A DNA stretch of 64,000 nucleotides from an uncultured Anaerolineales bacterium. Its GTDB lineage: Bacteria; Chloroflexota; Anaerolineae; Anaerolineales; JABWBV01. Every line of letters starts with the position of its first letter. Within the stretch, counting starts at the first letter, position 1. The stretch covers positions 65,320-129,319 of the forward strand of contig CAZAYY010000012.1 in NCBI GenBank assembly GCA_964489525.1. The letters run 5' to 3'. Below the pieces are notes generated by a model, which worked only from the letters and a program-made list of their open reading frames with translations, did no database searches and was not told the DNA's origin. Positions 37,207 to 54,383 of the stretch are shown piece by piece. The position numbers and the translations under genes were made by a program.

Positions 37207-38451
37207 TTAAGGCGGGCAGGAACCCTCTCCAGGGCAAGCCAGCAGCCATTGACTTTCAAAATCGCTCTCGGCTGTCCAGCCTGTGATGGCCAGGCTGGGG
37301 ACATTCACCTCCCAAAAAACCAGGCCATCCGTACACACAGGGCCTTTGAGCAGTTCCACCACGGTACCAGGGCCTAGAGTAGCGCGCACATCCGTACCCA
37401 CCCCCGCCCCATTGCGCAAACGGTTGCTGGTGGGGGGGTTGGGGTTAACATAAGCCCGTCCGCCCTGCTGCAGCAGGCTCAGGCAAGCGGGGGTCAGTTC
37501 TGGTGAGCCAGTTACGCGCAGGGACATGACCAACGCATCCAGGGTTTCCAGGCTGGGGTTAAAACTGGCTGCGGGCTGGTTTTCGAGCCGGATTTTGATG
37601 GCTTCCAGGTATCTTTCGTAGGCAGCAGGGAAATTGGTGGAACTGTAATCAGGGAAAGGCTCTCCACCGGGGGGGATGGCGGTGTCGGCACTGCGGGCAG
37701 GGAGAATTGCTGAATGAATCGGCAGGATAACAGCAACATAATACGCCCCATCGGCTGTAAGTCCCTGGTATGTATAAAAAAGCGAATGGTTGTTAAGTTG
37801 GCCGGCATCCTGGCCGAATTGGGTCAGATAGCGAATTCCACTGCCATTTTGAAAATTGAGAAAAACCAGGTTGCTGTGAAATACCTGGGCGGCGTTAAAT
37901 ACGGGCAGAAAAGGCAGGGGGCTGCTGGCTGCAGCGCCATCCAACAAACCTCTTAATTGGTTCTCCTGATTGGCCGCACCGGGGTTATATCGGCCTATGG
38001 CTGCCAGCGGATACACAAAAACCACCGGGCTGTGCAGGGTATCTTGCAAAGGGTATCCTTCCAGGGCATACTGCAGGTGGGCGGGCATCACTTCCCAGGG
38101 AGGGCTGCTGCCCCCAGGGGCTACTGCGGGAACGAATAACGCCTCTACCCCCACAGCGAGGCTGGCTGGTAAAACCAGCTGGATTTCATCCGCAAAAAAT
38201 GAAAGGGATTCCGATGTGGGCAGCGGGGAAAGGGTGGCTGTTGGTTCAACACCCGGGTTGGTGGGGGTGGGCAGCACAGGTGAAGGGGGCGGCGTGGGGC
38301 TGACGGGGGCCACCAGAGTAGCAGCCGCTGCCAGGGTAGCCGTAGGCGAGCCAACTGGCTGTTGAACCAGGCTGCGCGCCAGGTTGCAGCCCAGGCTCAT
38401 CAGGATGAGAAACAAAATCCACAGAAAAGGTTTTCTTCGAGTTAATCGCAT
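37207..38451 (-). CDS. Secreted lipoprotein with Pro/Thr-rich linker and C-terminal SH3b-like domain
   Basis: Start at MRLTRRK (38451). Lipobox LGC. The C-terminal ~70 aa (RLRNGAGVGTDVRATLGPGTVVELL...GLVFWEV...GWTAES) resemble a bacterial SH3 domain. Last gene of the cytochrome cluster. Confidence 0.55.
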   Translation of the reverse strand: MRLTRRKPFLWILFLILMSLGCNLARSLVQQPVGSPTATLAAAATLVAPVSPTPPPSPVLPTPTNPGVEPTATLSPLPTSESLSFFADEIQLVLPASLAVGVEALFVPAVAPGGSSPPWEVMPAHLQYALEGYPLQDTLHSPVVFVYPLAAIGRYNPGAANQENQLRGLLDGAAASSPLPFLPVFNAAQVFHSNLVFLNFQNGSGIRYLTQFGQDAGQLNNHSLFYTYQGLTADGAYYVAVILPIHSAILPARSADTAIPPGGEPFPDYSSTNFPAAYERYLEAIKIRLENQPAASFNPSLETLDALVMSLRVTGSPELTPACLSLLQQGGRAYVNPNPPTSNRLRNGAGVGTDVRATLGPGTVVELLKGPVCTDGLVFWEVNVPSLAITGWTAESDFESQWLLACPGEGSCPP

Positions 38452-38566
38452 GCCGATTATTTTATCAAAAAAGTTCAGTACCACCCAAAAAGGCGGGGTG
38501 TTTGCGAGGAGGGCAGCTCGCAAACACCCCATAAAAAACAGGCAGAGAAATCAGCCCGGCTGGTGG

Positions 38567-40675
38567 TCAGGGTGCGGTTGTGGGCAGGAGAATCGTCCAG
38601 CTATCGGTTGTGTGACAGTTAGAACATTGTCCACGTGCATGACCGAGCGGCCGGTCTTTGGCATGGCAAGATTTACAATCGTTATATCCATCGTGATTAA
38701 AATCAACATCAGCCCAATCGGTAAAGTTGTGACACCCGGAACACTGCCCGGGCCAATGGCCCGTTGGCGCTGGATGGCAGTAAATGCAGTTATCTGTTAA
38801 CGAGTGTTTGTAATAGGCGGGTGTCCAGGTAATCGTATTATGACAAAGCGAACACTGAAGGGTGTAATGTTCAGGGGATGTGGCATGGCAGGACAGACAA
38901 TTGGTGCTGACCAGTGAATGGTCAAATACCCACTCTCGCCAATCCTGGGTGTTGTGGCATTTGATACAAATGGTTTGAGAATAATGCATCAGCGGAACCA
39001 CATGGCAGCTTGTGCAAGGGTAGGCCATGTTGGTGTGGCTGTAGTTGGAGTTCGTCCAAGTGGTCATCGCATGGCACGAGCTGCATTCGCCGGGGTAGTG
39101 ATTGGTTGGCTGCTCGCGGAGATGGCAGTTGGAACAAGAATTCAAGGGGTTGTGCTGATAAAGATTTTTCTTCCAATTGTTCAGGTTGTGGCAGTCGGTA
39201 CACAAGCCTGGGTAGTGTTCTTCAGGCGTGGTGTGGCACTGCAGGCAGTTGGTGGACTTGTGATAAAACGGTTCCTCCCAGCTTGTGGTACTGTGGCAAA
39301 GGTCGCAGTTGGGGTTGTAATGGTCTGCGATCGTTTCATGGCAGGTTATGCAGCGTTGGCTTTTGACTTCATGGAAATCTTTGTTGGTTTTCCAGGTGTT
39401 TGTCAGGTGACAATTGGTGCAGCTGCCCAGGTAGTCGTGGTTTGTATTGGGTTCGGTGTGACAGCGCACACAGGATGTGCGGGTATACAATTGGTGGGCA
39501 AACTGGTAAACATTCCAATCGGTTTCGCTTGTATGACAATCCACGCAGGCGCCCTTGGTATAGTGGTTGGCGGGTGTGTCGGGGGTATGACAGGTTTCAC
39601 AGGTATATTCCCCAACATGGACATATTCAATGACCGTCCAGTCTTCCATATCCTGGTGGCAGTTCTGGCAAAAGCCCGGGTTGTGTTCGGGCGGTTCGGC
39701 ATCGGCGTGGCAGCTTTCACAGCGCTCGCCTTCGGTATGTTCAAAAATGGTGAGAGACCAATCTTCGGTGTCTTCGTGGCAGCGTTTACACTCCCCTGGA
39801 TAGTGGGCAGAATCCCCTTGGGGCAAGGTGAAAATTTCTTCTGTGTAACCCACGGAATAAACCGCTTCGGTGAGCATGGTAATCGCATGGCAGGATTGGC
39901 ATTCAAAGACGCCCACGTGGTCAAAAGCAGTTGGTGTCCAGTCCAGGGTGTTATGGCAGTTTTCACAGGCACCAGCAAAGTGGTTGGTATAAATAGAAGC
40001 ACTGGCAAGCAAATCAATGGTGTGGCATTGGGCACAAATCCGGGTGGTGCCTGCATACAGCCCGTTGACATGGCAGTCCTCGCAATTGCCTGAATGACCG
40101 CCTTCCATTGAAAAATTGCTGTGGTCCACATCTGAATCGAGATAGGAAACCGCGACCGGGTTAACGCTCACCACAGAAGGCAGAAGCTGCACCTTGGGCG
40201 TCTCGGCTTTAGGCTCCGGGGTGTTAAGCATGGCGGAAACAAAGGCAAAGAGCGGCGCCGCTGCAGGCTCATTTTCTTTTAGATCGAGTGATTTTACAAC
40301 CACAATGGTTTTGCGAGCCAGGCTTTCAAACTCTGGCTGGAAGCCAGAAACGGATTGGGCTGGAATGGCGTTTTGCTGAACCACCAATACATCCAGTGCA
40401 TCCGCCAAAAACCCCACCGCAAGAGACACCTCCTCAGGGTTTTGCGCACCCGCCAGGTCCACCAGGCGCCGTTCTGCAAGCTGGCAGGCATAAGCGGTCT
40501 TTTCTTCTGGACCCTGGGTCAACTGCATCCGCCAGCTTTCTGCTAGGTGTTGGGATTGAAACCAGGGTTGTTCAAGACAGCTAAAAGGCTCTACCTCGGC
40601 CAGGTAAAAAAGCCCGAGGCCCGCCATGACCAATAAACAGGTTAGCGATAATAATAGGATGACGAGCTTTTTCAT
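38567..40675 (-). CDS. Membrane-anchored multihaem c-type cytochrome, 25 CxxCH motifs
   Basis: N-terminal signal anchor, then a ~190-aa haem-free domain. That is followed by 25 CxxCH motifs, mostly as repeated two-haem modules CxxCH-x(6-8)-H(Y/W)-x(2-4)-CxxCH-x3-W. Confidence 0.9.
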   Translation of the reverse strand: MKKLVILLLSLTCLLVMAGLGLFYLAEVEPFSCLEQPWFQSQHLAESWRMQLTQGPEEKTAYACQLAERRLVDLAGAQNPEEVSLAVGFLADALDVLVVQQNAIPAQSVSGFQPEFESLARKTIVVVKSLDLKENEPAAAPLFAFVSAMLNTPEPKAETPKVQLLPSVVSVNPVAVSYLDSDVDHSNFSMEGGHSGNCEDCHVNGLYAGTTRICAQCHTIDLLASASIYTNHFAGACENCHNTLDWTPTAFDHVGVFECQSCHAITMLTEAVYSVGYTEEIFTLPQGDSAHYPGECKRCHEDTEDWSLTIFEHTEGERCESCHADAEPPEHNPGFCQNCHQDMEDWTVIEYVHVGEYTCETCHTPDTPANHYTKGACVDCHTSETDWNVYQFAHQLYTRTSCVRCHTEPNTNHDYLGSCTNCHLTNTWKTNKDFHEVKSQRCITCHETIADHYNPNCDLCHSTTSWEEPFYHKSTNCLQCHTTPEEHYPGLCTDCHNLNNWKKNLYQHNPLNSCSNCHLREQPTNHYPGECSSCHAMTTWTNSNYSHTNMAYPCTSCHVVPLMHYSQTICIKCHNTQDWREWVFDHSLVSTNCLSCHATSPEHYTLQCSLCHNTITWTPAYYKHSLTDNCIYCHPAPTGHWPGQCSGCHNFTDWADVDFNHDGYNDCKSCHAKDRPLGHARGQCSNCHTTDSWTILLPTTAP

Positions 40676-40715
40676 AAGGATACCCTCATTCTGGGCCGTT
40701 TATTTGAAACAGCCG

Positions 40716-41732
40716 TTAGCGGCCCGATTGCACGGCTGTCTTTAACGCTGCTGCCTCCCCCGCTGCACCTGTGGGATGGCAGGAAGCGCAGTCACTCAAA
40801 TCACCATACTCACCTACGGCAAAGTGTTCTGCAATGGTTTCAACGGGCTGGTGATCGTGGCACCCGTAACAGGTAATTTCGGTGTAGTACTGCTGATGGC
40901 AGGTTTCACAGGCCACCACATCATCACTGCCATGACGAATGTCAAATGTGTGCAGCAGCAGATAGGCTGGCTTCCAGGCCGTTGTTGTGTGGCAGCGGTT
41001 GCAGGCAGCGCCAAACATGACCTTGTCTTTTTCGGCAATGTGGCAATCGGAACAAACCTGGCTGGTGCCCTGGAACACCTGGTTCTGGTGACAGCTGGCA
41101 CACTCCGCTCCGGCATGGGCCCCATCCAGGACATAGGTATCATGGGCAAATTCTGCCATGTTGGCTGTGCCATCATGACAGGCCAGGCAATTCACGCCAT
41201 AGAAATCCATGTGGGCAGAAGTAAAGTCATGATCCATCTCGACATGGCAGGTGACACAATCGGTAGAACCTTCGGCGAAATTCCCCTGCGTATGGCAGTC
41301 TTCACAGGTCATCAGCGAGTTATCCACGCGCAGGTTATGTTTTTCAAGCGAAAAACCTCCCAACTCCTGGTGATTGATGTTGACAAACGGCACATAGCTG
41401 ATGTTGGCATCGGTACCCTGGTGTTCAGTATGGCACGTCTGGCATTTGTAAGTACCAGGCAGTTTGCTGTGCAATCCATCCTGTTCCATTCGCTCTCGGG
41501 CAATTTCCAGGTGGCAGTTCTGGCAGCGATCATCACTGATACAGTGAATGGGAACATGGCAGTGCCCACATTCGTGTTTGAAGGCTTCGTGGTTTGGATA
41601 CCCCCCCAACATCGCTCCTGTCGCCTGGGCTGTGGACAAATTTCCCACCATCCGGTACTTCACGCTTTCAAAGGTGAGAAAACCGGCGGAGAAAACCACC
41701 ATCAGGGCAATAATTTTTATAAATCCTTTCAC
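40716..41732 (-). CDS. Membrane-anchored multihaem c-type cytochrome, 12 CxxCH motifs
   Basis: N-terminal TM helix and 12 CxxCH motifs. The C-terminal 4-haem block is paralogous to the C-terminus of the 6-haem protein. Confidence 0.9.
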   Translation of the reverse strand: MKGFIKIIALMVVFSAGFLTFESVKYRMVGNLSTAQATGAMLGGYPNHEAFKHECGHCHVPIHCISDDRCQNCHLEIARERMEQDGLHSKLPGTYKCQTCHTEHQGTDANISYVPFVNINHQELGGFSLEKHNLRVDNSLMTCEDCHTQGNFAEGSTDCVTCHVEMDHDFTSAHMDFYGVNCLACHDGTANMAEFAHDTYVLDGAHAGAECASCHQNQVFQGTSQVCSDCHIAEKDKVMFGAACNRCHTTTAWKPAYLLLHTFDIRHGSDDVVACETCHQQYYTEITCYGCHDHQPVETIAEHFAVGEYGDLSDCASCHPTGAAGEAAALKTAVQSGR

Positions 41733-41787
41733 AATAACACCTCCAATCCTTCGAAATGCTGGAAGGATTTGAACGGTAAATCAAGAA

Positions 41788-42609
41788 TCATCGCGTTCCT
41801 TTCTGCGCGGGCGGGGCCACCAGTTCCCAATCCCCGGGTTCTCCTGTCAGATGGCAGCTTGTGCAGGCCTTGATGTCGTAGATGTTGGCCTTCAAATGCA
41901 CCGCTAACATGGCATCGGGTTGGTGGTCGTGGCATCCAAAACAAGTGTGCGTATCATACGAATCAATGTGGCAAGAAACACACTGCTGCGTTGTATCTGA
42001 ACCGTGATCCAGGTGAAAAGTGTGGCGGGTGAGTAAGGCTGGTTTCCAGGCTTGGAGCGTGTGGCAGCGCACACAATCCAACCCAAAACGGTCTTTGTGA
42101 ACCTCGGGCTGCTCATGGCAAGCCGAGCAGCGGTGGGGGTCATCCACCACAACATTTAAGAACTCTTCTTCAAGGGCCATTTCAACCAGGGCATACGCTT
42201 CCACTTGACGCTCGCCAGCCAGGGCTTCGACCAGATTCCAGTTCACATTTTGAATGAAAGTAACCAACTGTTCAATTTGTAGGTCACTCAAAATGCCGCC
42301 CTTGTTGGTGTGCCAGGCAGCCATAACCGAGCCATGCGCAGAACGGGCAATAATCTGAAAAAGAGCGTCCGGGTCGGCATCCGCAAGGTAAGGGGAGTTA
42401 AGCGGCGGCATATCCCCAATCCCCTCGCCATACAGCCCGTGGCAAGACACGCAGTTATCCATATACACCACAGCCGCCTCAGCAATATGCTGTTTGCGCA
42501 CTTCTTCCATGGCAATGGCAATCCGTTGGCCTTCTTGCAAGGCATACAAAGGCAGCAAAATGAGGAATCCAAGCAGTCCGAGTGCTGTAATCCAGGAATA
42601 TCGGTTCAT
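41788..42609 (-). CDS. Membrane-anchored c-type cytochrome: class-I monohaem domain fused to a 5-haem module (6 CxxCH)
   Basis: TM helix. CVSCHGLYGEG...M class-I-like domain. Then CSACH, CVRCH, CVSCH, CFGCH and CTSCH. Confidence 0.9.
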   Translation of the reverse strand: MNRYSWITALGLLGFLILLPLYALQEGQRIAIAMEEVRKQHIAEAAVVYMDNCVSCHGLYGEGIGDMPPLNSPYLADADPDALFQIIARSAHGSVMAAWHTNKGGILSDLQIEQLVTFIQNVNWNLVEALAGERQVEAYALVEMALEEEFLNVVVDDPHRCSACHEQPEVHKDRFGLDCVRCHTLQAWKPALLTRHTFHLDHGSDTTQQCVSCHIDSYDTHTCFGCHDHQPDAMLAVHLKANIYDIKACTSCHLTGEPGDWELVAPPAQKGTR

Positions 42610-42618
42610 GGCACCCTC

Positions 42619-43185
42619 CTACCCATACACCAACTGGTCGGGCGAGAAGTGGTCGCGCCGCCGTAAGTAAGAAGTATCGACATACACTTTGCCGCTGTCA
42701 ATTTTGACGGTGTATAAATCTAAGGCCCGGTGAAGGGTAGTTTTTTCTGAATTTCCGTAAAAATCAAAAGCCGAAGCGTGGCAAGGGCAAAGGAATTTGC
42801 CTTCATCGGAAGAATAATTAACTGTGCAGCCCAGGTGGGGGCAGCGGCGGTAGACGGCCATAAACCCGCCATCCGCCGCCCGCACCAAGTAAAAACCTGC
42901 TACTGGAAAATCGGTCACCGAACCAGGGCTAAAGCTATCCACAGTCCCAACGTCCACCTGCCGGGCAACCCGGCTTTCTCCGGTTTGCGGTTTGAGATAC
43001 ATCAGGCCAATGCCGATGAGTTCAACAGCAGCCGCAACACCCGCCAGTTTCAAAAATTCTTTGCGGTTAATGCGCAGCTTCTTCCGAGGTTCTGAAATCG
43101 GGTGGGATACCATAGCTTCCAAACCCTGGATTTCTTCAGGGTCCATATCGGTTGTTGGGGTAGGTTTACTGTTAAGCGTTTGCAT
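42619..43185 (-). CDS. Rieske [2Fe-2S] subunit of a cytochrome bc-type complex
   Basis: AGGAGG RBS. Tat-like NRKEFLKLAG plus a TM helix. Cluster boxes CPHLGC and CPCHAS. Confidence 0.9.
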   Translation of the reverse strand: MQTLNSKPTPTTDMDPEEIQGLEAMVSHPISEPRKKLRINRKEFLKLAGVAAAVELIGIGLMYLKPQTGESRVARQVDVGTVDSFSPGSVTDFPVAGFYLVRAADGGFMAVYRRCPHLGCTVNYSSDEGKFLCPCHASAFDFYGNSEKTTLHRALDLYTVKIDSGKVYVDTSYLRRRDHFSPDQLVYG

Positions 43186-43202
43186 TTTTCACCTCCTGTC
43201 CA

Positions 43203-44558
43203 TTAAGAAAATGGCAGGATAAGAGCCATATTCGCGCCTCGGAAGAAGACGCCAATGATGGTCAGCGCCACCAGGCTGGAAAACTCGAACATAAATAAAC
43301 CCAACAATGCTTCCGAGCGGTTTGCCCGTAAAAGCCTGAATAAACCATAAACCAGGGCCAGCAGCAAAACCGCGACCGCAAATGGAATCACTCCATTCGC
43401 AACCAGGGGATTCAGGGTTGGGAATAGTTCCGGAATTTCGAGCCAGTATTCATCGGCAATCACCAGCAAGGGAATCAGGTTGAAGGCCAGCAGCGCGCCC
43501 AGGGCAAAAGTCCACCTGCCGGTTTTTGACCGGAAATAGATACCAGTGCTTTGATCCTGTCGATCGTAATAAGGAAGCAGTACTGCCATCAAGGTCACCA
43601 AAATCACCAGTGCCATGGCTGCTCGAGCATCCATATGCAGCAGCAGTTCTTGAAGTCCCATGAAATACCAGGCAGCTTTGGCCGGGTTTGGAGAAGAAAG
43701 GGGGTCGGCAACAGCCAACAACGGGGCTGGAAACTGCGTTCCGATTAAGAAAACCCCAAAAGCCACCAGAACCATAATCCCCAGCTCTTTCTGAACCAGG
43801 TTTGGAATGGTGGTTACCTGTTCGGTGATTTCGCCTGGCTTTGAAGGGGGGTGGCTGATTCCACCCGATTTGCGAATTTTCCAAAAGTGGTAGCTCATCG
43901 TTGCCACCAACAAAACTGGCAGCACAGCCACATGAATCGCATAAAAATTCCGCAAGGCCGCCTGGCCAAGATCCGGCCCGCCCAACAAAAAATGAGACAG
44001 AGAATCTCCAGCGAATGGAATGTACTGAACCAGGCTGGCCGCAACAGTTACCGCCCAATACGAAAGCTGGTCCCAGGGCAGCAGGTAGCCAGTGAAATTG
44101 AAGCCAAGAACGATGAACAGCAAAACCATCCCAATCACCCAGTTGAAAGCCCGTTCTTTAACATGGCTGCCCGTCAAAAAGACCCGCAGCAAATGGAGCA
44201 CCACCACAAACACCAGGATGTTTGCAGACCAATGGTGAATGGCGCGAATCAGCGAGCCAAACATCACCTGTGATTCAATCATCTGGATGCTCTGGTAAGC
44301 CCGATCCACACTGGCATCATAGCGGAACATGAGCAAAACCCCGGTAGAAATCAGGACAAGTGTCAGAAAGGTGGCAATCCCACCCAGACCCCAGGTATAG
44401 GTAAAACGCAAAGCCGGGACTGGGACGCGGGTGGGGTGCAGATGTAAAATGACGTTATTTAGAACTTCTCGCAAGCGGCTGCGTTCTTCTTCTGCTGAAA
44501 TGGCAGCCTGGTCTCGCCCAGGAGTACTGGTTTTATTCAAAGGAAGATTGGTATCCAT
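43203..44558 (-). CDS. Cytochrome b (fused b6-like N-domain plus subunit-IV-like C-domain plus extra helices)
   Basis: Helix B H-x13-H (IHHWSANILVFVVVLH) and helix D H-x14-H (IHVAVLPVLLVATMSYH). The Qo-loop region PAKAAWYFMGLQELL sits at the position of the PEWY motif. Confidence 0.9.
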   Translation of the reverse strand: MDTNLPLNKTSTPGRDQAAISAEEERSRLREVLNNVILHLHPTRVPVPALRFTYTWGLGGIATFLTLVLISTGVLLMFRYDASVDRAYQSIQMIESQVMFGSLIRAIHHWSANILVFVVVLHLLRVFLTGSHVKERAFNWVIGMVLLFIVLGFNFTGYLLPWDQLSYWAVTVAASLVQYIPFAGDSLSHFLLGGPDLGQAALRNFYAIHVAVLPVLLVATMSYHFWKIRKSGGISHPPSKPGEITEQVTTIPNLVQKELGIMVLVAFGVFLIGTQFPAPLLAVADPLSSPNPAKAAWYFMGLQELLLHMDARAAMALVILVTLMAVLLPYYDRQDQSTGIYFRSKTGRWTFALGALLAFNLIPLLVIADEYWLEIPELFPTLNPLVANGVIPFAVAVLLLALVYGLFRLLRANRSEALLGLFMFEFSSLVALTIIGVFFRGANMALILPFS

Positions 44559-44570
44559 ATAAGCCCTCGA

Positions 44571-46118
44571 TTATTGGGTAACCAACAAAGGAATAAAAAC
44601 TTTAAAGTTCACTGGTACTTCTGTACCCAAATATAAAAAAGCACTGCCAACCAGGTCAAAATTGACCCGATAAACTGGAGCGCCAACAACCAGGTCGGCA
44701 TGGTTGTCTAGGTCCAGGTCGGTGCCGCCAGAAAACGTAAAACCAAAGGATGCGTCAGCCTTGTTGCCCAGCCCGCGCCAGAGCACACTGACACCCAACC
44801 CACCGGGATAGCCTGCGAAAGCATAGATGGCGCCCTGGTCTGGTTTGTCGCCATCAAACATGGATGCACCCACAAAAACGTCGGGAAAACCATCCTGGTT
44901 GACATCGCCAGCGCTTCCAACAGAACAGCCAAACTGGGAGCCGCCCTGCGGGAAGATGTAACTCCAGACCGGGATGGGGAAAAGTCCATCGCCACTGCCT
45001 AGATAAAAATAAGCGGCGCCCTGGTTCACCAACTGGCTGCTGTGATAGGGCTCACCAATGATTAAGTCCGCATAACCATCCTGGTTGACATCCCCTGCCC
45101 CCGCTAAAGCATAGCCAAACTGAGCTCTATCCTCCTGCCCATAAACAACCTGGGCGGGTGTTTCTGCCAGGCCATTTTCGCCACCCAGGTAAACATAAAC
45201 TGCACCCACCTGAACCGTTTGCGTCACATAATAGGGTGCGGCGATGGCGACATCGGTATAACCATCCTTGTTCAGGTCCCCCACCCCGGCCACCACCATC
45301 CCAAAGTCAGCGCCAGCTTGCCCGCCATACACAACCCAATCCGGCTCAAATGGCAGACCGCTGGCAGAACCATAGTAACCAAAAACTGCGCCTGCTTTAA
45401 GCCCTGAAAGCGGGGACGTAAAATTGGGAGCGCCGATCATCACATCGCCAAAACCATCCTTGTTGACATCACCGGCACTGGCCACAGCATATCCAAATTG
45501 TGCACTTTTGGTGTTGGATTCCACCCGCCAATCCGGGGTGAGTGCAGGCGTTCCAGGTTGGCCGTAGAACAGGTATGCAGCGCCTTCCTCAGCTTCCGGG
45601 TTTGTGGTGCTGGGAGCCCCGATCAGAATATCATCCCGGCCATCCCCGTTAACATCCTGCACAATCGCCAGGCTGCTGCCATAGCGCGAGCCCTGCTGCT
45701 CGCCAGCCGTTTGCCAGGAAGCCGCGTTTCCCGGACCGGAAGGGCCGCTCAGGTATAGGAAAGCCCGGCCTTCGCGGTACACCTGGTCGGTCATTTTCGC
45801 GGCACCCACCAGTAAATCGGCCCGGCCATCACCGTTCACATCGCCTGTGATGCTGACTGCGCTGCCAAATTCATCGCCATTGCTCTCGCCGCTTTGCGAC
45901 CAAACGGGGGTCAGGGAAAAGCCCGCCAGGGTTTGGTTTTGAGACAGGGAAAGGCTTGCGCTTTCAGGAGCAGCGCCCGCCAGGGAAGGGTGAGAAAACC
46001 CGAACGCCAAAAGCACAACCAGGCTCAGCCAGACCCAGGCGGTTGGGCGGGAATGGGTATTTTGGGAAGGGGTTAAGGGGGTTGGGTTCATCAGGTTGTG
46101 CTTTTGGCTGTCTTGCAA
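44571..46118 (-). CDS. Secreted FG-GAP (integrin-alpha-like) beta-propeller repeat protein
   Basis: Signal peptide. About 7 repeats of FG..V...GDVNxDGxxDxxxGAP. Only 12 nt upstream of cytochrome b. C-terminal tail NFKVFIPLLVTQ. Confidence 0.85.
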   Translation of the reverse strand: MQDSQKHNLMNPTPLTPSQNTHSRPTAWVWLSLVVLLAFGFSHPSLAGAAPESASLSLSQNQTLAGFSLTPVWSQSGESNGDEFGSAVSITGDVNGDGRADLLVGAAKMTDQVYREGRAFLYLSGPSGPGNAASWQTAGEQQGSRYGSSLAIVQDVNGDGRDDILIGAPSTTNPEAEEGAAYLFYGQPGTPALTPDWRVESNTKSAQFGYAVASAGDVNKDGFGDVMIGAPNFTSPLSGLKAGAVFGYYGSASGLPFEPDWVVYGGQAGADFGMVVAGVGDLNKDGYTDVAIAAPYYVTQTVQVGAVYVYLGGENGLAETPAQVVYGQEDRAQFGYALAGAGDVNQDGYADLIIGEPYHSSQLVNQGAAYFYLGSGDGLFPIPVWSYIFPQGGSQFGCSVGSAGDVNQDGFPDVFVGASMFDGDKPDQGAIYAFAGYPGGLGVSVLWRGLGNKADASFGFTFSGGTDLDLDNHADLVVGAPVYRVNFDLVGSAFLYLGTEVPVNFKVFIPLLVTQ

Positions 46119-46149
46119 AAAATCTGTTTCAGGATCCTACAAGTCGAGA

Positions 46150-46179
46150 GGGCAGGGGCCAGCAAACCAGCCCCTGCCC
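46150..46179 (-). other. Intercistronic GC-rich stem-loop between the BNR and FG-GAP genes
   Basis: Perfect 10-bp stem (gggcaggggc 46150-46159 / gcccctgccc 46170-46179). No T-tract follows on the minus strand. Confidence 0.5.
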
Positions 46180-46194
46180 ATTATGGCTGGGTTG

Positions 46195-49100
46195 TTACCG
46201 GGTGAAGGGCAGGTATACCCTGTAAAGCGTGTCTGCCACCAGCAAAGGCTGCCAGGCATCCACAGACCAGTTGCCCTTAGCATCTTTCGCCCGGAATTTG
46301 ATGATGTGCAAGCCTGGGCTGAGGCCCCACTGGTTGGGGTTCATGGCAAAACCAGGCTGGTTGCTCATAAGCCCGTCATGGGAGGAAGTCCACTCGTATT
46401 CCACAATGCCGCCACTCAGCTGGTCACAATCCTTGGCAAAGCCCTGGAAATAGACCAGGTCGGTCGTGGCAAGTTCTATGGAAGTTGGAGCAACCACAAT
46501 CCGGGCGGTGGGTACAATCTCGATGGCTTCGTTGTAATATACCCGGCGGTACCACATGTCGCTGTTGGTCACCACTTCTTCGGCGTCTTCATTCCATTGG
46601 TTCCAAACCGCATAGAAGAATGTGCCGCCCGGGTTGGCCACCAGCGCCGCCTCTCCAGAAAGATCGTCCTGGTTGTTTTCAAGCCAGTCAAAGGATTCGC
46701 GATAAACGCCGTTGGCATCTGGAATGTCTGCAAGCACAATGTCATCATAGTTGTCGCCCCAGTCGGAAGCCCGGCTGTAATACAGGTTCAACGGGGTGGC
46801 TTCGCCAAGGGTAACCGTGGTATTGTCGCCGGTTTCATACACCACGAAGAACTTGCTGGGGTCTCGCTCATCATCGGTATAGCGATACTCCGTCTTCAAC
46901 GTATCCGAGAAAATTGCCGGAGCGGTGGGGCTGTAGCGGGGATCCAGGATGGTGATCTTGGTGCCAATAAGCTGTGAAACGTTGCGGGCGGGTTCAAAAG
47001 CGCCTACCCCATAGCAGGTTTCTACCGACAGTTCACTTTCGCCATCAGGGATATCCAGGTAGTTTTCAACGTGGCACGGGCCGATATCGTCTCCCAGCCC
47101 AAGTGGGGTGGTTGTCCAGGTCTGCCCGCCGTCGAAGGAGCGGCGAATGTACAGGTTGTATTTGTCATTTCCAACCGAGTTAGCCATCCAGTTGGGCGAC
47201 CAGGCGTAAAGCACCATGACAAAATCACCATCAATGAAACCACGGTGGCCTTTGGCAATGTCGTAGGGGTTTTCCCAGGTCTGGTCATCCAGGTTTTCTG
47301 CTGTCTGGTCCCAAACGGTCACCTTCGGGAAGGGGGATACGCCGCCATCCCACGGGAAGGCTTGAATGCATTGAGCCGGGTCGGTGCCATCTCCACCCGC
47401 TGGCAGGTTGGTACAGCGCTCAATGCTGGTTCCAGACAGGTTGGTGGGTGTCGAAAGGCAGATGCCACCGGGGTAGTTCGGGTTGATTGCTGCATGGACG
47501 GTTTCGGTGGTGTAGCGGGTATCGGTGATCGGCACATAGTCCCAGATATCACAGGCCATGTTCTCAAAAGCAAAGGGGTTATCGAGCATGGGGTCAAATT
47601 CATCTGGAATGACCAGCCGGCGCATGTAGATATCGGCCGGGCCGCCCTGGTTAATGATGCCCTGCTTGTAGAGCAAGATTGCCGAGGTTTTTTCCACTGA
47701 GTTCAACGTGGCTTTTCCAGATTGGACAATCAGGCTGAAACGCCGGGCAATTTCGGTTTCGTAAAATGCGTTGCCCCAGTCATCCAACTGAAGCTCAAAG
47801 AAATCTCCTGTTTCTGGGTCGGAAGAAGGTTGGTTGAGGATATGGCCTCGGCTGACCAGGTCGGGTTGGAACATGTCGAAGCTGTGGTACCAGATATTCT
47901 TACCGATATCAATGGGTTCCACTTCCAACTCGCTCGATCCTTCACCTAATGCTTTGGTTTCTTCGTAGGCAATCAGCACCCAGGCGCTGGTTCGGGTGTC
48001 GTAGATGGGTTCGGTAATCTCGACGGTATAGGTGATGCCTGAGGTATCGGTGAGAGTAACGGTCTGGGTGATTTCGCCAATGATGGTGTCATAATCATAG
48101 GTGGTGTACCCTTGCAAGCCAATCCGGGGTCGCGAAGCGCCCACCCGCCCTACCAGGGTGCGGCCATCTTCCGTCACGCAAACATTCTTGGGCTGGCCGC
48201 CGGGGTTAAGCCACTCTACTGTGGATGCACAGTACTCAAGAATTCCATCTCCGTTGAAGTCGTGGTGGCAATAGGGGTCTTCGGTCAAAGAGGTGGCATC
48301 ACAAAAGTCGTTGTCGGTCAGGCGAACCGGAACTTCCATGAGCACACCCACTTTGGGCAGGGTTCCTTCCGGATCATAAACATATTCAATCGGGTCGGGG
48401 ATGTTTTCCAGGTTCTCGGTGGTCGGGTCGTCCACCAGGGCAAAATCATCCCAACCAATATAACTGTACCAGACATCGGTTTTGGCGTTGACAATCGCAC
48501 CGCTCCAACCCTCGCCTGGGCCAAGGCCCTGGCCGGGCCGCAGGCCTTCGGGGTCTTCCTGCCAGGTGACAATAAAGCCAGCGCCTTCCACGCCTTTAAC
48601 TTCAATCCGGTGTGCATCCCGGCGTCCAGAGGTCAGGCGTTCGGCTTTGCGCCAAATCATGTCATAATAGGAGGTGCCATCTTCCCGGGTGATTTGCTCC
48701 AAGGTGCCTCGGGCTACCCAAACACAGCCATAAGGGATTTCGCCTATTTCAGGAAAGCCCTGTAGGGTGTAATCTACTGATTTTTGGGTACCCATCACGC
48801 CAAACAGATCTTTTTCCGGATAGATGGTATAGGCGGGCAGGCCGCCATCACAGTAGCGGCTGATCCAGGCCACCATCGCGTACCGCCCGGTAATGGCGAA
48901 TTCACGCGAAACGCCCAGTTCCAGGTAGAAAACATCACCGGGGTAGGGTATGCCATCCACGGTGAATGAGCTCAGATGGGCTGAATCTGACAGGTTGTAG
49001 TTCTTCCAGGTGGCGCCATCGTCCAGCGAGAGAGCGGCAAAGGCATCCCGTGCACCAAAACCAAGGCCGCTGCGCACTTCTTCCTCGTGTTCAATACCAT

Positions 49101-49386
49101 CAATGTATGCGCTCAATAAAGGCCGGGCATAGTCGCGGGTTTCAATCACCGTTTCTGTGTCGGAAAGCAAGACGGTGTACTCAATGGTGGTCAGGCTGCC
49201 ATCGGCTTTTTGGGCTGGGACATAAAAGTTCATCATACCCACAGCGGCTTCCTCGGTTTCACCGTCGGGTGTTCTGGAGACGTTTCTGCGAAACATCACG
49301 CCATCATCACCCAGGGCTGAACCGGTGACAAGGCCGAGGGCCAGGACAACCATGAGCACTGCAAATAATACGGTTTTCGGTTTCAT
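46195..49386 (-). CDS. Large secreted protein with BNR/Asp-box motifs and a C-terminal Ig/PKD-like domain
   Basis: Signal peptide. Two Asp-boxes (SLDDGATW, SFDGGQTW). C-terminal beta-sandwich-like region. Tail YRVYLPFTR. No further family recognised. Confidence 0.7.
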   Translation of the reverse strand: MKPKTVLFAVLMVVLALGLVTGSALGDDGVMFRRNVSRTPDGETEEAAVGMMNFYVPAQKADGSLTTIEYTVLLSDTETVIETRDYARPLLSAYIDGIEHEEEVRSGLGFGARDAFAALSLDDGATWKNYNLSDSAHLSSFTVDGIPYPGDVFYLELGVSREFAITGRYAMVAWISRYCDGGLPAYTIYPEKDLFGVMGTQKSVDYTLQGFPEIGEIPYGCVWVARGTLEQITREDGTSYYDMIWRKAERLTSGRRDAHRIEVKGVEGAGFIVTWQEDPEGLRPGQGLGPGEGWSGAIVNAKTDVWYSYIGWDDFALVDDPTTENLENIPDPIEYVYDPEGTLPKVGVLMEVPVRLTDNDFCDATSLTEDPYCHHDFNGDGILEYCASTVEWLNPGGQPKNVCVTEDGRTLVGRVGASRPRIGLQGYTTYDYDTIIGEITQTVTLTDTSGITYTVEITEPIYDTRTSAWVLIAYEETKALGEGSSELEVEPIDIGKNIWYHSFDMFQPDLVSRGHILNQPSSDPETGDFFELQLDDWGNAFYETEIARRFSLIVQSGKATLNSVEKTSAILLYKQGIINQGGPADIYMRRLVIPDEFDPMLDNPFAFENMACDIWDYVPITDTRYTTETVHAAINPNYPGGICLSTPTNLSGTSIERCTNLPAGGDGTDPAQCIQAFPWDGGVSPFPKVTVWDQTAENLDDQTWENPYDIAKGHRGFIDGDFVMVLYAWSPNWMANSVGNDKYNLYIRRSFDGGQTWTTTPLGLGDDIGPCHVENYLDIPDGESELSVETCYGVGAFEPARNVSQLIGTKITILDPRYSPTAPAIFSDTLKTEYRYTDDERDPSKFFVVYETGDNTTVTLGEATPLNLYYSRASDWGDNYDDIVLADIPDANGVYRESFDWLENNQDDLSGEAALVANPGGTFFYAVWNQWNEDAEEVVTNSDMWYRRVYYNEAIEIVPTARIVVAPTSIELATTDLVYFQGFAKDCDQLSGGIVEYEWTSSHDGLMSNQPGFAMNPNQWGLSPGLHIIKFRAKDAKGNWSVDAWQPLLVADTLYRVYLPFTR

Positions 49387-49430
49387 TTTTTACTCCTCTT
49401 CTAGAAGGTTCAAAGGACTTAAGGGGGCTG

Positions 49431-49640
49431 TCAAAGGGTCTTAACATACTTCATAAAGATTTCCTCCATTTGTTCAGGGGTGGCATTGACCTGTTTGCAC
49501 AAATAATTGAACATCAGTTCAACGGTTGAAAAGTGGATCACTTCCTGGGTGAGGACATTTTGCAGGGTGGCTCGCCAATCCCCACTCTGGCTATCACACC
49601 AGATGCGCATTAAGTAGGATTTGTAAAGTTGATCTTGCAT
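49431..49640 (-). CDS. Small conserved hypothetical protein (69 aa), paralog of 52906-53130
   Basis: Start at MQDQLYKSY (49640) with an AAGGAG RBS. Shares the motif Y-x-S-Y-x-x-R-x-W...W-R-A-x-L-Q-x-x-x-T-x-E-x-x-x-F-S with the second copy. Confidence 0.6.
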   Translation of the reverse strand: MQDQLYKSYLMRIWCDSQSGDWRATLQNVLTQEVIHFSTVELMFNYLCKQVNATPEQMEEIFMKYVKTL

Positions 49641-49679
49641 AGGCTGACTCCTTATAGCCCTCTTAATGTACAAATTGTG

Positions 49680-49708
49680 TTGACAAACTTCACAGTTAAA
49701 TGTATTAT
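49680..49708 (+). promoter_or_regulatory. Sigma70-type promoter for the SARP-STAND regulator
   Basis: Consensus TTGACA (49680-49685), a 17-nt spacer, then TATTAT (49703-49708). About 98 nt upstream of the ATG. Confidence 0.55.
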
Positions 49709-49805
49709 GAGAGTAAGCAGTGATAAAAACGTGAAAAGGGTGTGATTTTAAGAACGTGAAAGATTAAGGTTTTTTTTATACCGTTTCACACTTCAGGGAG
49801 GTTGT

Positions 49806-52736
49806 ATGGAGCGGATCGTGATCAACCTGTTGGGTTCGTTTAACGTCCTGGCAGGCGGCCAAAAAATCAACGACGATTTTCGAACCAGCAAAGAGCGTGC
49901 CTTACTGGCTTATCTGGTTGTTGAGCACCAGCAGGTTCACTTACGAGATGCTTTGGCCGAAATGTTCTGGCCAGGCAAGCCGCCCGGAAGCGCCCGTACC
50001 AATTTACGACAGGCTCTGACGGGTATCCGCCAGGTTTTGACGCAGGGGTTGAACAACCTGGACAACCATCTGATTGTGAACAATGAGAGTGTGCAGCTGC
50101 ACCTGGGGGGGCAGATCCAGGTAGATGCACTCACGTTTGCCGGGCAAATTCATCATGCAGGTCATCATACCCACCTGGAGTTAAGCCAATGCCCAAAATG
50201 CCTGGCCGAGTTAGAAGAGGCCGTGGCTGCATACCAGGGAAATTTTCTTGAATCCTTTTTCCTGCCAGACAGCATTACATTTCAAGAATGGATTACCTAT
50301 CAACGCGAGTATTACAACCGCCAGCTTGGCTCTGCCCTCTGGATGTTAATAAGTGCCCACAAAAAGCGTGTGGATTTTGAGCGGGTCGAGCAGTATGCAG
50401 CCCAAATGAACCGCTTTTTCCCCCTGGAAGAATTTGGCTACCGCGAACTGATGGAAGTGTATGCGGCCACAGGAAGAAGGAACGCCGCCCTGGAAAAATT
50501 TTCTGAATGCGCAAACCTGATGCAGCGTGAATTGGGCATTGAACCTTCTGGGGAAACCCAGGCTCTGTACGAAAAAATCAAAAGAAATCCGGACACAAGA
50601 CCCCTGGCGCAAACCAGAGAGCCACCCGCTGCCCGGATTCCCACGGGTGAGTCACCTGTAAAAACGAACCTACAAGCACCCCTGACCAACTTTTTTGGCC
50701 GTCAAAAGGAATTGAACCGGCTTGCCACCTACCTGGAAAGCCCAAACTGCCGGTTGATCACCATTTTAGGGATTTCAGGCGTTGGCAAAACCCGGCTGGC
50801 CCTGGAAGCAGCCCGGAAAAACGGCCATTTGTTTCCTGATGGGGTTTGGATTGTGTTTTCAAACGAACTCCGAAAGTCGCGCTTCCTGGCGGATACCTTG
50901 CTGCAAACCATGGGGGTTTATATTGCAAACCCGAACGATGTCAAAGCTCAGCTGGCCAGGGTGCTGCAAAACCAGCAGGCACTTTTGGTTTTGGATGGGT
51001 TTGAATTGCTTGAAGACCAGATCCAGCTTGTTTTGGATCTGTTGAGCCAGGCACCCAGGTTAAAAATTTTACTCACCTCTCGGGTACACCTGAACACAAA
51101 AGCCGATTACCCGATCATTCTGGGCAGCCTGGATTACCCGCCCCAAACTACTCAATCCAAAACACTCCAAATTAACGATTATCCTGCCCTACAGCTTCTC
51201 CACGACCGGGCATATCCGTTTTTGCTGCCAGAGCAAATTCCCCCTGCTCATATTCAAGAAATGGCAAAAATTTGCCAGGAGGTGGAAGGGCTGCCTTTAG
51301 CCATTGAACTGATTGCCGCCAACCTGGACGAATTCAGCTTTGGCGAAATCCTGGCCATGTTAGCGAACAACCAACTGCAGATCGAAACCCAACAGCTCGA
51401 TTTTCCAGACAAACACCGCAGTCTTGTGGTCGCGCTCAACAGCCTTTGGGAAAGTCTGTGCTCAGAATGCAAACAAAACGCCCCAAAATTGAACGTTTTC
51501 AAAAGCGGGTTCACATCCCAGGCCGCCCAGGCCTTAGGCGTGTCCAACCACACCCTGCAGCACCTGAGCAGTAAGTTCATTTTGCAAAAAGACATTCACC
51601 AGAGGTACCAGTTTCAACCCATGGTTCAGCGGTTAATCGTATCCATGTTCCCGGTCGCAGCCGAACAAGCCGAAAGGCATGCCCGGCATTACCTGGAATA
51701 CCTTCAAAAACACGAAATGGAACTGCTTTTTGGCTACCCAAACAGCCTTACTTACCTGGAAATCAAACAAGATATCGCCAACATTCGCCAGGCCATAGAT
51801 TGGGCCATCCTGAACACGAGGGCCGACCTTTTATCCCCCTCTCTGAACAGTATTTACGCCTACTATGATACCAGCAACCGTTTTCACGAAGGGGAAGGCC
51901 GGTTTGAAAGAATCAGCAAAGCCTTTGAAAGGCTGCCCCTCACTCCTGAAAACCAGCGCAGCCTGGGCATTGCCATGGGCTACCAGGCCTGGTTCAGCGG
52001 GCGCGGTGGTGCGCTGGAAAATGCCCTGGTAATGCTGGCAAGCAGCCTGGCCCTGCTTGAGGAGTTTGGAACCGAGAGCGACAAAACCTTCATCTATGTT
52101 GCCCTCAGCCAGCTGGAGCTGCGATCAGGGCAGTTTGCCTGGGCAAAAGAACATGCTGATCAGGCGAAAGCCCTGGCCATTCACTACTACCAACCACACT
52201 GGCGCTGGCTCAGTGAACTGACCCTGGCGCAAACTGCCCACCTGACCCACGAGAAAGAATCACCGGTCACAATCTACCTGGAGTGCCTTTCCGCATTTAA
52301 GAACTTAGGCTATGGGTTGGGATATATCCGTACCTTGCTGCTGCTTGCCCGGTACAACCTGGCCACAAACCAGGCGGAAATGGCAAAATCGCACCTGATG
52401 CAAGCCTGGGAATACATTAAAAGCCCGCAGGATACCTGGCTTTCAGCCATCCTGGAGTTGGAGTTGGGAAATGTCGAACTGCAGCAGGGGTTCATTGCCC
52501 AAAGCCAGCTTACCTTAGAGAAAAGCTACGCCTATTTTCAAGATGTGGGAGACAAATATCATATCAGCCTGGCTGCCATCAGCCTGGGCAATCTTTGGAC
52601 AAAACAGGGACAACTCGAAAAAGCCGAGATGTACTACCAGGAAGCCCTGGTTGCTGGCAACCAACAACAGCTGGAACCCATTACCCGAGAAGTTGAGCAC
52701 AGGCTGCTGAAATTGAGAGAATCCCCCACCCGATAA
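49806..52736 (+). CDS. SARP/BTAD-family transcriptional regulator fused to NB-ARC (STAND) ATPase and TPR repeats (AfsR-like)
   Basis: N-terminal winged-helix (SKERALLAYLVVE...) plus BTAD (...YRELMEVYAATGRRNAALEKFSECANLMQRELGIEPSGETQALYEKI). P-loop GISGVGKT, Walker B LLVLDGFE, and a TPR-like C-terminal half. Confidence 0.85.
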   Translation: MERIVINLLGSFNVLAGGQKINDDFRTSKERALLAYLVVEHQQVHLRDALAEMFWPGKPPGSARTNLRQALTGIRQVLTQGLNNLDNHLIVNNESVQLHLGGQIQVDALTFAGQIHHAGHHTHLELSQCPKCLAELEEAVAAYQGNFLESFFLPDSITFQEWITYQREYYNRQLGSALWMLISAHKKRVDFERVEQYAAQMNRFFPLEEFGYRELMEVYAATGRRNAALEKFSECANLMQRELGIEPSGETQALYEKIKRNPDTRPLAQTREPPAARIPTGESPVKTNLQAPLTNFFGRQKELNRLATYLESPNCRLITILGISGVGKTRLALEAARKNGHLFPDGVWIVFSNELRKSRFLADTLLQTMGVYIANPNDVKAQLARVLQNQQALLVLDGFELLEDQIQLVLDLLSQAPRLKILLTSRVHLNTKADYPIILGSLDYPPQTTQSKTLQINDYPALQLLHDRAYPFLLPEQIPPAHIQEMAKICQEVEGLPLAIELIAANLDEFSFGEILAMLANNQLQIETQQLDFPDKHRSLVVALNSLWESLCSECKQNAPKLNVFKSGFTSQAAQALGVSNHTLQHLSSKFILQKDIHQRYQFQPMVQRLIVSMFPVAAEQAERHARHYLEYLQKHEMELLFGYPNSLTYLEIKQDIANIRQAIDWAILNTRADLLSPSLNSIYAYYDTSNRFHEGEGRFERISKAFERLPLTPENQRSLGIAMGYQAWFSGRGGALENALVMLASSLALLEEFGTESDKTFIYVALSQLELRSGQFAWAKEHADQAKALAIHYYQPHWRWLSELTLAQTAHLTHEKESPVTIYLECLSAFKNLGYGLGYIRTLLLLARYNLATNQAEMAKSHLMQAWEYIKSPQDTWLSAILELELGNVELQQGFIAQSQLTLEKSYAYFQDVGDKYHISLAAISLGNLWTKQGQLEKAEMYYQEALVAGNQQQLEPITREVEHRLLKLRESPTR

Positions 52737-52776
52737 TCCGCATCACCACAGACAGAACCAACAACCATGATGAATA

Positions 52777-52831
52777 AAAGCATCTGCCCTTTGGTCACTG
52801 CGATATTCGCAGCCTGGCGGGCAGATGCTTT
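52777..52831. terminator. Compound hairpin in the convergent spacer (likely bidirectional terminator)
   Basis: 13-bp outer stem (52777-52789 / 52819-52831, aaagcatctgccc / gggcagatgcttt). It encloses a 6-bp inner hairpin (ctgcga-tat-tcgcag, 52798-52812). The flanking A/T runs are short. Confidence 0.5.
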
Positions 52832-52905
52832 GCATGGATGTTCTGATGGGGTTCGAAGCGGCAAAGATCAGTTTCGTGGTGGTGGATTCTTTACGATAAA
52901 CCTCT

Positions 52906-53130
52906 TCAAGCAGGCTCAACCCTGCGGGATTTAACCTGTTGGGGTTTGCCAGGTTGGAATTCCACTCCAATTTTGTCATAAATATAAACCGCCATGGCCG
53001 GAATCTCCGAAAATTCTACGATCTCCTTGGTGAAAATATCTTGCAAGGAAGCCCGCCATTGGTTTTCATCTCTTACCCACCACAGGCGAAGAATGTAGGA
53101 CTGGTAAAGGTGGTTAATTCCTGCTGTCAT
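52906..53130 (-). CDS. Small conserved hypothetical protein (74 aa), paralog of 49431-49640
   Basis: GGAGGA RBS. Sequence LYQSYILRLWWVRDENQWRASLQDIFTKEIVEFS matches the motif of the first copy. Confidence 0.6.
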   Translation of the reverse strand: MTAGINHLYQSYILRLWWVRDENQWRASLQDIFTKEIVEFSEIPAMAVYIYDKIGVEFQPGKPQQVKSRRVEPA

Positions 53131-53182
53131 TTTGTTTTCCTCCGGGGGTGAATCACCAAGAATGCCAATTGGGAGGGGAATG

Positions 53183-53224
53183 AAAACCCCTTCGGATTTG
53201 ATGGGCTGCCCAAATCCGAAGGGG
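53183..53224 (-). terminator. Stem-loop with short T-tract between the anti-sigma gene and the small paralog
   Basis: 13-bp perfect stem (53187-53199 ccccttcggattt / 53212-53224 aaatccgaagggg). On the minus strand it is followed by TTTT (53183-53186). Confidence 0.5.
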
Positions 53225-53243
53225 TGATTGTTGAAAAGGGGGG

Positions 53244-54383
53244 TTAAGGTTTTGCAGGCGTTTGTTCGGGAATTCCAGCGCCAGGCTCACCAGGAGTCTC
53301 TTCAGGCTGCCCCAGGGCGGGGTCGCCAATTGGTTCCTCGGGTTGACCTTCGCCGGGTTCACCAGGAATTTCTTCCGGAATGCCCTGTCCAGGGGTTTCA
53401 GGTGTGTCTTCGGGCTTACCCAGGCCGGGTTCGCCGGGCACATCCTCTGGTTTGCCCAGGCCAGGTTCACCGGGCACATCCTCTGGTTTGCCCAGGCCAG
53501 GTTCACCGGGCACATCCTCTGGCTTGCCCTGGCCTGGAGTGCCAGGAACTTCTTCAGGCTTGCCAGACGGGGAATCGGGGTTGACATTATTGTTCGGGCC
53601 TTCGCCATTGAAAACAGGTTCGCCTGGATCTTCGTTGGTGCGGTCGCGTGGCTGCTGTTCAAGCATGTTCATGGTGGGGTCCAGGTTGCCGTTGCCAGCC
53701 TGCAGCAGGCGCAGCCGTTCAATAACCATCTGTCGCACCTGGTTTAGCACAGGGCTGGGTGATTCTTTCTGATCCTGCAGCAGCCGCTCTTGCACCTGCA
53801 GGGCTTGCTGCAGCCGGATGGCAGCTTGTGCCTGGCCTTCTGGGCTGAGTTGGGCAGCATATTGGTAAGCCATTTCCAGGGTGTGGGTGGCCTGCTCCCC
53901 GGCGCTCGCTGGAATCTCAAGCCCGGCTTCTTGCAGGGCTAAAATCTCCATGGTGCGCAGTTCAGAGAGGTGCAACATGCGCTGAAAACGGGCATCATCA
54001 TTGAAGGTGAGGGCAAGGGCAATGTCTTCAGTCAGGGTTTTGACAGGGTATAGAGGTTCGCCGGGCAGGCTGTCTTGGGCCGCATAGGCTGTGGCGCCAG
54101 CGCCACCCAGGGCGAGAACAAAGGCTACGAGAATTGAAGTTAAGAGGGGTACCATTTTATGCTCCTTTCGCATAGGGTTCCAAAAAGAAAACAAAGAAAC
54201 CAGGAATGAGCGGCTGGCCGGGCGAAGCGCATGCGGCGCAGGAAGATGTTCCAATTCATCCAGGAAAGCAGCCCGTTTTTGTGCAGCGATTTCCGGGTTT
54301 CGGGCCGGGGTGGTTTTCGCAAGGGGAGCGAAAAGTTCCCGGGCTTCATCGTCAGACATGGGGGGGGTGTTGAAGGGGTTCAT
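53244..54383 (-). CDS. Anti-sigma-factor-like membrane protein with DUF5667-like domain and repetitive Pro/Gly/Glu tail
   Basis: 4-nt overlap with the ECF sigma gene. Single TM helix (VPLLTSILVAFVLALGGAGA). LPGEPLYPVKTLTEDI block typical of DUF5667. C-terminal 9 x 12-aa repeats. Confidence 0.7.
   Translation of the reverse strand: MNPFNTPPMSDDEARELFAPLAKTTPARNPEIAAQKRAAFLDELEHLPAPHALRPASRSFLVSLFSFWNPMRKEHKMVPLLTSILVAFVLALGGAGATAYAAQDSLPGEPLYPVKTLTEDIALALTFNDDARFQRMLHLSELRTMEILALQEAGLEIPASAGEQATHTLEMAYQYAAQLSPEGQAQAAIRLQQALQVQERLLQDQKESPSPVLNQVRQMVIERLRLLQAGNGNLDPTMNMLEQQPRDRTNEDPGEPVFNGEGPNNNVNPDSPSGKPEEVPGTPGQGKPEDVPGEPGLGKPEDVPGEPGLGKPEDVPGEPGLGKPEDTPETPGQGIPEEIPGEPGEGQPEEPIGDPALGQPEETPGEPGAGIPEQTPAKP
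53247..53564 (-). repeat. In-frame tandem repeat, 9 x 36 bp (GKPEDVPGEPGL-type), three central copies near-identical
   Basis: The protein tail reads GKPEEVPGTPGQ, GKPEDVPGEPGL x3, GKPEDTPETPGQ, GIPEEIPGEPGE, GQPEEPIGDPAL, GQPEETPGEPGA, GIPEQTPAKP. Confidence 0.85.

Follow-up and report, generated by a model that had tools for sequence, protein, structure and literature searches.

What do two small paralogous genes do on either side of a large transcriptional activator? This question is raised by the window, a stretch of 64,000 nucleotides from an uncultured Anaerolineales bacterium of the phylum Chloroflexota (contig CAZAYY010000012.1, positions 65,320 to 129,319). In the window, genes for proteins of 69 and 74 amino acids, called copy 1 and copy 2 here, bracket the gene of an AfsR-like regulator of the SARP type. 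An operon divergent from this regulator has copy 1 as its promoter-proximal gene, and the promoter of copy 1 has the layout of SARP-activated promoters. We lean towards the view that the small proteins are companions of SARP activators, and that copy 1 is a direct target of the regulator and probably acts back on it.

Two copies of a family without a name

A sequence-only reading of the window had described two paralogous open reading frames (ORFs) of about 70 codons, each with a ribosome-binding site, and could not assign their shared motif to a named family. Both ORFs and both sites were found again. The Shine-Dalgarno sequence is AAGGAG for copy 1 and GGAGG for copy 2, and each is located 8 nt 5' of the ATG. 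The similarity of the two proteins is significant in a formal alignment (BLASTP, E = 2e-14, 34% identity over 50 aligned residues). Both also match a profile of 125 unrelated members or representatives of the family, with E-values of 6.7e-23 for copy 1 and 6.2e-19 for copy 2, and both have the conserved Y, Y, R, W, W, R and F positions that serve as the family criterion. Judged by its sequence, copy 2 is a true member of the family. The nearest relative of copy 1 is 51% identical and comes from an Anaerolineales metagenome-assembled genome (MAG; locus L043). For copy 2 no close orthologue was present among the loci fetched, the best match being about 45% identical.

The motif indeed belongs to no named family. 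Neither copy matched Pfam or NCBIfam, a profile search of the PDB sequences with the family gave no match, and word-indexed homologue searches with single copies recovered only the queries themselves. Hidden Markov model searches define a large family. A full HMMER scan, queried with three of this genome's copies, gave at least 3,599 cluster representatives with E <= 1e-3, almost all with a length of 60-95 amino acids, and a profile search gave 5,553 clusters at 90% identity, of which every named one is 'hypothetical'. The family consensus is YxSYLLRLWxxxxxxxWRASLxxxxTxExxxFAxLExLFxFLxxQ. This genome has five copies: the two in the window and one on each of the contigs C32, C41 and C4. No paper on the family was found in the literature on SARP/AfsR biology and on SARPs in Chloroflexi, in which the family motif itself was not searched.

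An AlphaFold2 model of copy 1 was obtained from a 56-sequence alignment, with a predicted local distance difference test (pLDDT) score of 87. It has strands at residues 9-15, 22-28 and 34-37, a helix at 40-50, and a second helix in the tail. According to this model, the family is a domain of about 50 residues with three strands and a helix, followed by a variable and often acidic tail. When the model was compared with the PDB by Foldseek, nothing significant was found (best E 0.88), and chromo-shadow and SH3-like three-strand folds reached a template modelling (TM) score of only about 0.45. Both copies are soluble proteins without membrane helices, like most members. Tandem two-domain members also exist; the model of one is of moderate confidence (pLDDT 68.5, predicted TM score 0.56) and holds no usable packing information. 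Family proteins are acidic, with a net negative charge in 79% of members, so DNA binding is unlikely. A net charge of <= -2 over the last ten residues is seen in 45% of members, compared with 11% of this genome's other proteins. A precursor of a ribosomally synthesized and post-translationally modified peptide was considered and rejected, since the tails have no Cys-, Ser- or Thr-rich cores and no modifying enzymes are encoded nearby. Apparent fusions of the family to long ORFs, such as a 504-aa frame in L014, proved to be antisense overlaps.

Neighbourhood of the family

The regulator of the window has Pfam matches to BTAD (5e-18), NB-ARC (4e-13), TPR_12 (2e-9) and Trans_reg_C (6e-4). Their order is that expected of an AfsR-like large SARP: an N-terminal winged helix-turn-helix (wHTH) and BTAD, a central NB-ARC/NOD and C-terminal TPR. 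Copy 1 is divergent from this gene and lies 165 bp from its start, and copy 2 is convergent with it and lies 169 bp from its stop. Across the genome, four of the five copies each have a divergent neighbour that encodes a regulator of 1,000-1,180 amino acids with N-terminal wHTH and BTAD.

To see the neighbourhood in other genomes, 50 loci were taken from a pattern search of species-representative genomes, built on a 15-sequence subset. All of these loci contain YQSYLLRLW, so that the sample is biased to one part of the family. Nearly all come from MAGs of Chloroflexota (Chloroflexia, Anaerolineae, Caldilineales, Thermoflexales and Ardenticatenaceae). In 38 of the 50 loci, such a regulator has its N-terminus encoded on the other strand and no more than 1 kb away (median spacer about 190 bp), whereas only about 0.1 loci of 50 would be expected by chance, at about 10 such regulators per 4.1 Mb. 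Among 201 genomes of the phylum, the family was found in 27 and BTAD genes in 127, and all 27 genomes with the family have BTAD.

On Pfam-annotated contigs, the regulators with a companion have three types of sensor part: AAA/NB-ARC with TPR, LRR, and a PD40/Tricorn beta-propeller, each joined to BTAD. The family gene also accompanies small SARPs of 250-450 amino acids without any sensor part, and there it is co-directional and lies directly after or before the regulator gene. Because the same companion is found with NB-ARC/TPR, LRR, beta-propeller and sensor-less SARPs, its partner should be the SARP part (wHTH and BTAD) and not the NB-ARC/TPR part. The sequence-only reading had suggested the STAND regulator as a partner of the small proteins. 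The tie to the regulator module is borne out by the 38 loci, but the STAND part of the regulator has to be given up as the partner. We had also considered that the acidic tails, some of which end in EEEV, dock in TPR like EEVD peptides; this was dropped, since SARPs with LRR or a beta-propeller and sensor-less SARPs have the companion too. From its gene neighbourhood, the family appears to be a dedicated companion of SARP-type activators in Chloroflexota and is nearly always adjacent to them.

The small gene is usually followed, after 0-150 nt, by a co-directional gene. The gap between copy 1 and the BNR gene is 44 nt, and copy 1 is, as had been read from the sequence, the first gene of the BNR/FG-GAP/bc/multihaem cluster. 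This cargo operon is a candidate extracellular electron-transfer cluster. L036 and L038 have the same gene order (small gene, BNR, FG-GAP, cytochrome b), and a BNR homologue lies behind the small gene in L036, L037, L038 and L043. A SARP-domain tree places the regulator of the window in one clade with those of L036-L039 and L043 (support 100/99). Elsewhere the cargo varies and includes subtilisin, which is the cargo of the BTAD and LRR locus, lipoproteins, and giant proteins of 3,571-9,148 amino acids. Since the cargo families vary between loci, the constant parts are the regulator and the repeat box described below. The idea that the small proteins tie expression of the cytochrome cluster to regulation thus stands in that copy 1 heads the operon and the gene order is conserved; the cytochrome cluster is, however, only one of many cargoes. 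The other three copies of this genome each precede a giant gene, for 5,081 amino acids at C32:18834-34079, 3,571 at C41:4572-15287 and 9,148 at C4:54407-81853. The three giant proteins have N-termini like signal peptides, and each gene is faced by its own SARP-STAND regulator.

Some members adjoin a regulator without a cargo gene behind them, namely copy 2 and those of L093/94 and L057. Convergent placement at the 3' end of the regulator gene, as in copy 2, recurs in the same two cases, L093/94 and L057. Orphan members with SARP boxes also exist (L057, L068 and L069).

Promoter of the small gene and the repeat box

For promoter statistics, 41 spacers between regulator and small gene were pooled. 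They contain 102 direct repeats of exact 6-mers spaced 11 nt apart, where 2 would be expected (z ~51). Harmonics were seen at 22 nt (29 against 2 expected) and 33 nt (14 against 2 expected). In 28 of the 41 spacers the repeats form a tract of 20 nt or more directed towards the small gene. When aligned, the repeats have the core ..TG ACG.. in common, and a TAnnnT hexamer oriented towards the small gene follows the A of the promoter-proximal core at a distance of exactly 12 nt. The combined score was >= 14 in 15 of the 41 spacers, compared with 0.1 in shuffles. An extra peak of direct repeats was seen at 41 nt (41 against 2 expected), which is no multiple of 11 and is probably due to longer repeats in one or a few loci.

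In the published rule for SARP promoters, the repeats are 11 or 22 bp apart and the 3' repeat is located about 8 bp from the -10 element (PMC10936776). The small-gene promoters of Chloroflexota match this SARP-activated layout, and the regulator is predicted to bind the 11-bp repeats, which for an AfsR-like SARP would overlap the -35 region of the target promoter. The promoter of copy 1 has the same layout as those of the family, with a combined score of 12: the three repeats are followed by 7 nt and the hexamer CATAAT, which ends 63 nt before the ATG (Table 1). Its triple TCAC array is the single one at this locus and one of two genome-wide, against 0.5 expected. It is well supported by these features that the small gene is the first gene of a unit activated by the neighbouring SARP, whose binding is a prediction from the repeats. 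The other triple array in the genome (TTCAC, 11-nt spacing) is located at C13:~56089 on the minus strand and is followed by TAAGAT and an ATG; it is possibly a further SARP target.

The -10 elements of the regulator (TATTAT, plus strand) and of copy 1 (CATAAT, minus strand) overlap on opposite strands within 49680-49709. This suggests that the two promoters compete and that activation of one may occlude the other. Two more copies of the repeat core were seen in the spacer. One is TTTCACG at 49755-49761(-), which is 25 nt upstream of the middle repeat and out of phase. The other is an inverted copy, CCGTTTCAC, at 49781-49789(+), which is located 17 nt before the ATG of the regulator and might serve autoregulation. 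No Rfam match was found in 49300-53400.

Table 1. Features at the locus of the two small genes, with positions in the window
Feature	Position	Strand	Description	Basis or remark
Cargo operon behind copy 1	37207..49386	-	BNR (1063 aa), FG-GAP, cytochrome b, Rieske, cytochrome c, two multihaem proteins, 441-aa ORF	
Copy 1	49431..49640	-	69 aa, small-protein family YxSYLLRLW...WRASL, first gene of the operon	ORF, ribosome-binding site, profile match
Sigma-70-like promoter	49680..49708	+	TTGACA-17-TATTAT, faces the regulator gene	11/12 consensus matches, consensus match only
-10 hexamer of copy 1	49704..49709	-	CATAAT	Starts 12 nt past the proximal core
SARP box	49717..49749	-	Three 11-nt direct repeats AAAATCACACC / CTTTTCACGTT / TTTATCACTGC	Core A at 49743, 49732, 49721
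AfsR-like large SARP regulator	49806..52736	+	wHTH, BTAD, NB-ARC and TPR, 976 aa	Pfam
Copy 2	52906..53130	-	74-aa paralogue, orphan, convergent with the 3' end of the regulator	ORF, BLASTP, profile match
Terminator-like hairpin	53186..53225	-	16-bp stem, then UUUUCAUU	Separates copy 2 from the anti-sigma stop codon
DUF5667 anti-sigma factor	53244-54383	-	Neighbour, outside the module	Pfam
ECF (extracytoplasmic function) sigma factor	54380-54922	-	Neighbour, outside the module	Pfam

Possible role of the small proteins

How would the small protein act? In the mechanism that we favour, the regulator would bind the three 11-bp repeats and recruit RNA polymerase, and this binding would turn on copy 1 together with the BNR, FG-GAP and cytochrome genes. 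The small protein would then bind the SARP domain or the complex of SARP and polymerase and tune its activity. By analogy with AfsS and AfsR, a feedback loop would be closed in this way. Feedback on the SARP is favoured because the SARP module and the box are the sole constant partners of the family, because the family gene is co-operonic with small SARPs, because membrane-anchored forms exist, and because some members adjoin a regulator without cargo behind them.

Several observations weigh against this reading. Only four of the eight N-terminal SARP regulators of this genome have a companion, so it is not obligatory, and regulators with and without companion do not form separate clades in the SARP-domain tree. 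For copy 2, neither a SARP box within 250 nt (the score of 8 is that of the background) nor a recognizable promoter was found. The sequencing runs found to hold this sequence are sediment DNA metagenomes only, with no RNA runs among them. In addition, the first downstream product has a hydrophobic N-terminus, and is thus usually exported, in 25 of 36 loci compared with a background of 31%.

This last point is what would be expected if the small protein served the cargo and not the regulator, that is, if it were a cytoplasmic helper that escorts the export or folding of exported or giant proteins and were merely co-regulated by the SARP. The giant proteins of 3,571, 5,081 and 9,148 amino acids encoded behind this genome's other copies fit such a role, and the family proteins are small and acidic as are some secretion chaperones. 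However, the cargo families are mutually unrelated, copy 2, L093/94, L057 and the small-SARP operons have a regulator as neighbour but no cargo behind, and membrane-anchored variants with a periplasmic cytochrome c domain are unlike an escort. We therefore regard the helper function as unlikely. It is still less probable that the ORF acts in cis as a leader at the 5' end of a long operon, through translational coupling, mRNA stabilization or anti-termination. The gene is always promoter-proximal and several of the operons, at 12 kb to 27 kb, are very long, yet many downstream genes are short. Moreover, the conserved fold is predicted with confidence, thousands of diverged sequences have retained the same aromatic residues and arginines, and tandem two-domain and membrane-fused forms exist.

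The sequence-only reading had offered the ECF sigma and anti-sigma pair as another partner, so that the small proteins would couple the cytochrome cluster to an envelope signal. Copy 2 does follow the two genes in the order described and on their strand, at a distance of 113 nt from the anti-sigma gene. In L072, L079 and L086 an ECF sigma gene comes directly after the SARP-STAND regulator gene on the same strand, in a layout that is unlike that of the window and rare overall. On the other hand, an ECF sigma gene lies within 6 kb in 2 of the 50 loci, where about 1.5 would be expected, and neither a second arrangement of sigma, anti-sigma and copy 2 nor a close relative of copy 2 was present among the loci fetched. 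Directly after the anti-sigma stop codon there is also the terminator-like hairpin (-36.8 kcal/mol across 126 nt for the hairpin stretch), and copy 2 starts 55 nt past it. Because of this 16-bp hairpin, copy 2 is not simply the last gene of that operon, although the gene order had been read correctly. Copy 2 is an orphan paralogue outside the sigma/anti-sigma unit, and we consider a partnership with this pair very improbable. Copy 2 may instead be a second partner of the regulator under different control. Within the anti-sigma gene, at 53407-53564, there is a 36-nt tandem repeat (3.2 copies, 95% matches), which encodes a repeated Pro/Glu-rich tail of the GKPEDVPGEPGL type.

The feedback on the SARP that we favour can be compared with known systems. 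AfsS is made under the control of AfsR, binds AfsR via two to five repeats of about 12 residues, and raises the affinity of AfsR for DNA (PMC10832544). The present locus shares with it the architecture of the regulator (wHTH and BTAD, NB-ARC/NOD, TPR; 976 amino acids here and 993 in AfsR), and an adjacent small gene whose product has no DNA-binding domain and whose promoter has 11-bp direct repeats beside the -10 element (PMC10936776, PMC10832544). The family is, however, unrelated to AfsS. The description of AfsS sets it apart: AfsS has 12-residue repeats, whereas the modelled fold here is a compact, repeat-free three-strand-plus-helix domain, and no internal repeats were found in the sequences of copy 1 and copy 2. 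The gene afsS is a solitary downstream gene, whereas the small gene here is transcribed divergently as the first of a long cargo operon. The present systems belong to Chloroflexota, with several paralogous cassettes per genome, and the interaction with the regulator is a prediction here.

Anti-activators that are under the control of their own target regulator are a further parallel: TraM for TraR, and MalY, Aes and MalK for the STAND regulator MalT. As in those systems, a small protein possibly binds an activator for feedback, but their families are unrelated to this one.

Membrane-anchored members show a likeness to anti-sigma factors and co-component transducers. In L098, L099/L104 and L101/L103, which lie beside small SARPs, membrane helices follow the family domain. 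In the member of L098 (G229:C2:276800-279800), the family domain is followed by a membrane helix, then by a cytochrome c domain (PF00034, E 4e-10), and then by another membrane helix. The membrane-anchored members are encoded directly after a sensor-less small SARP, as in operons of sigma and anti-sigma genes. They differ from anti-sigma factors in that the partner is a SARP activator and the family has no similarity to anti-sigma domains, and most of its members are soluble. From its domains, the member of L098 may form a redox-sensing pair with its SARP. The SARP gene directly before it has a weak GAF-like match, below the Pfam cut-off, in front of wHTH and BTAD. A tentative and rather doubtful extension is that the family domain is a general SARP-binding module, the counterpart of anti-sigma domains. 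Its soluble form would feed back from the SARP's own target promoter, and its membrane-anchored form, with a periplasmic cytochrome c or other domain, would relay an outside signal, for example the redox state, to a sensor-less small SARP. If this is true, it would be an undescribed class of two-protein signal transduction across Chloroflexota.

To our knowledge, SARP activators have been studied almost only in actinomycetes, as switches of antibiotic production. They are also common in Chloroflexota, as the BTAD genes in 127 of the 201 sampled genomes indicate, and there they have the same promoter geometry as in Streptomyces and probably control operons for exported, often giant surface proteins. 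Because of the conserved repeat box and its fixed 12-nt geometry, targets of these regulators are predictable straight from sequence. Many of the regulators are accompanied by a member of a family of thousands of small proteins that has neither a name nor a model in Pfam and NCBIfam. Should the companion bind to the SARP domain, it would act as a general accessory factor for regulators of this class and would provide a handle for activating silent SARP-controlled operons.

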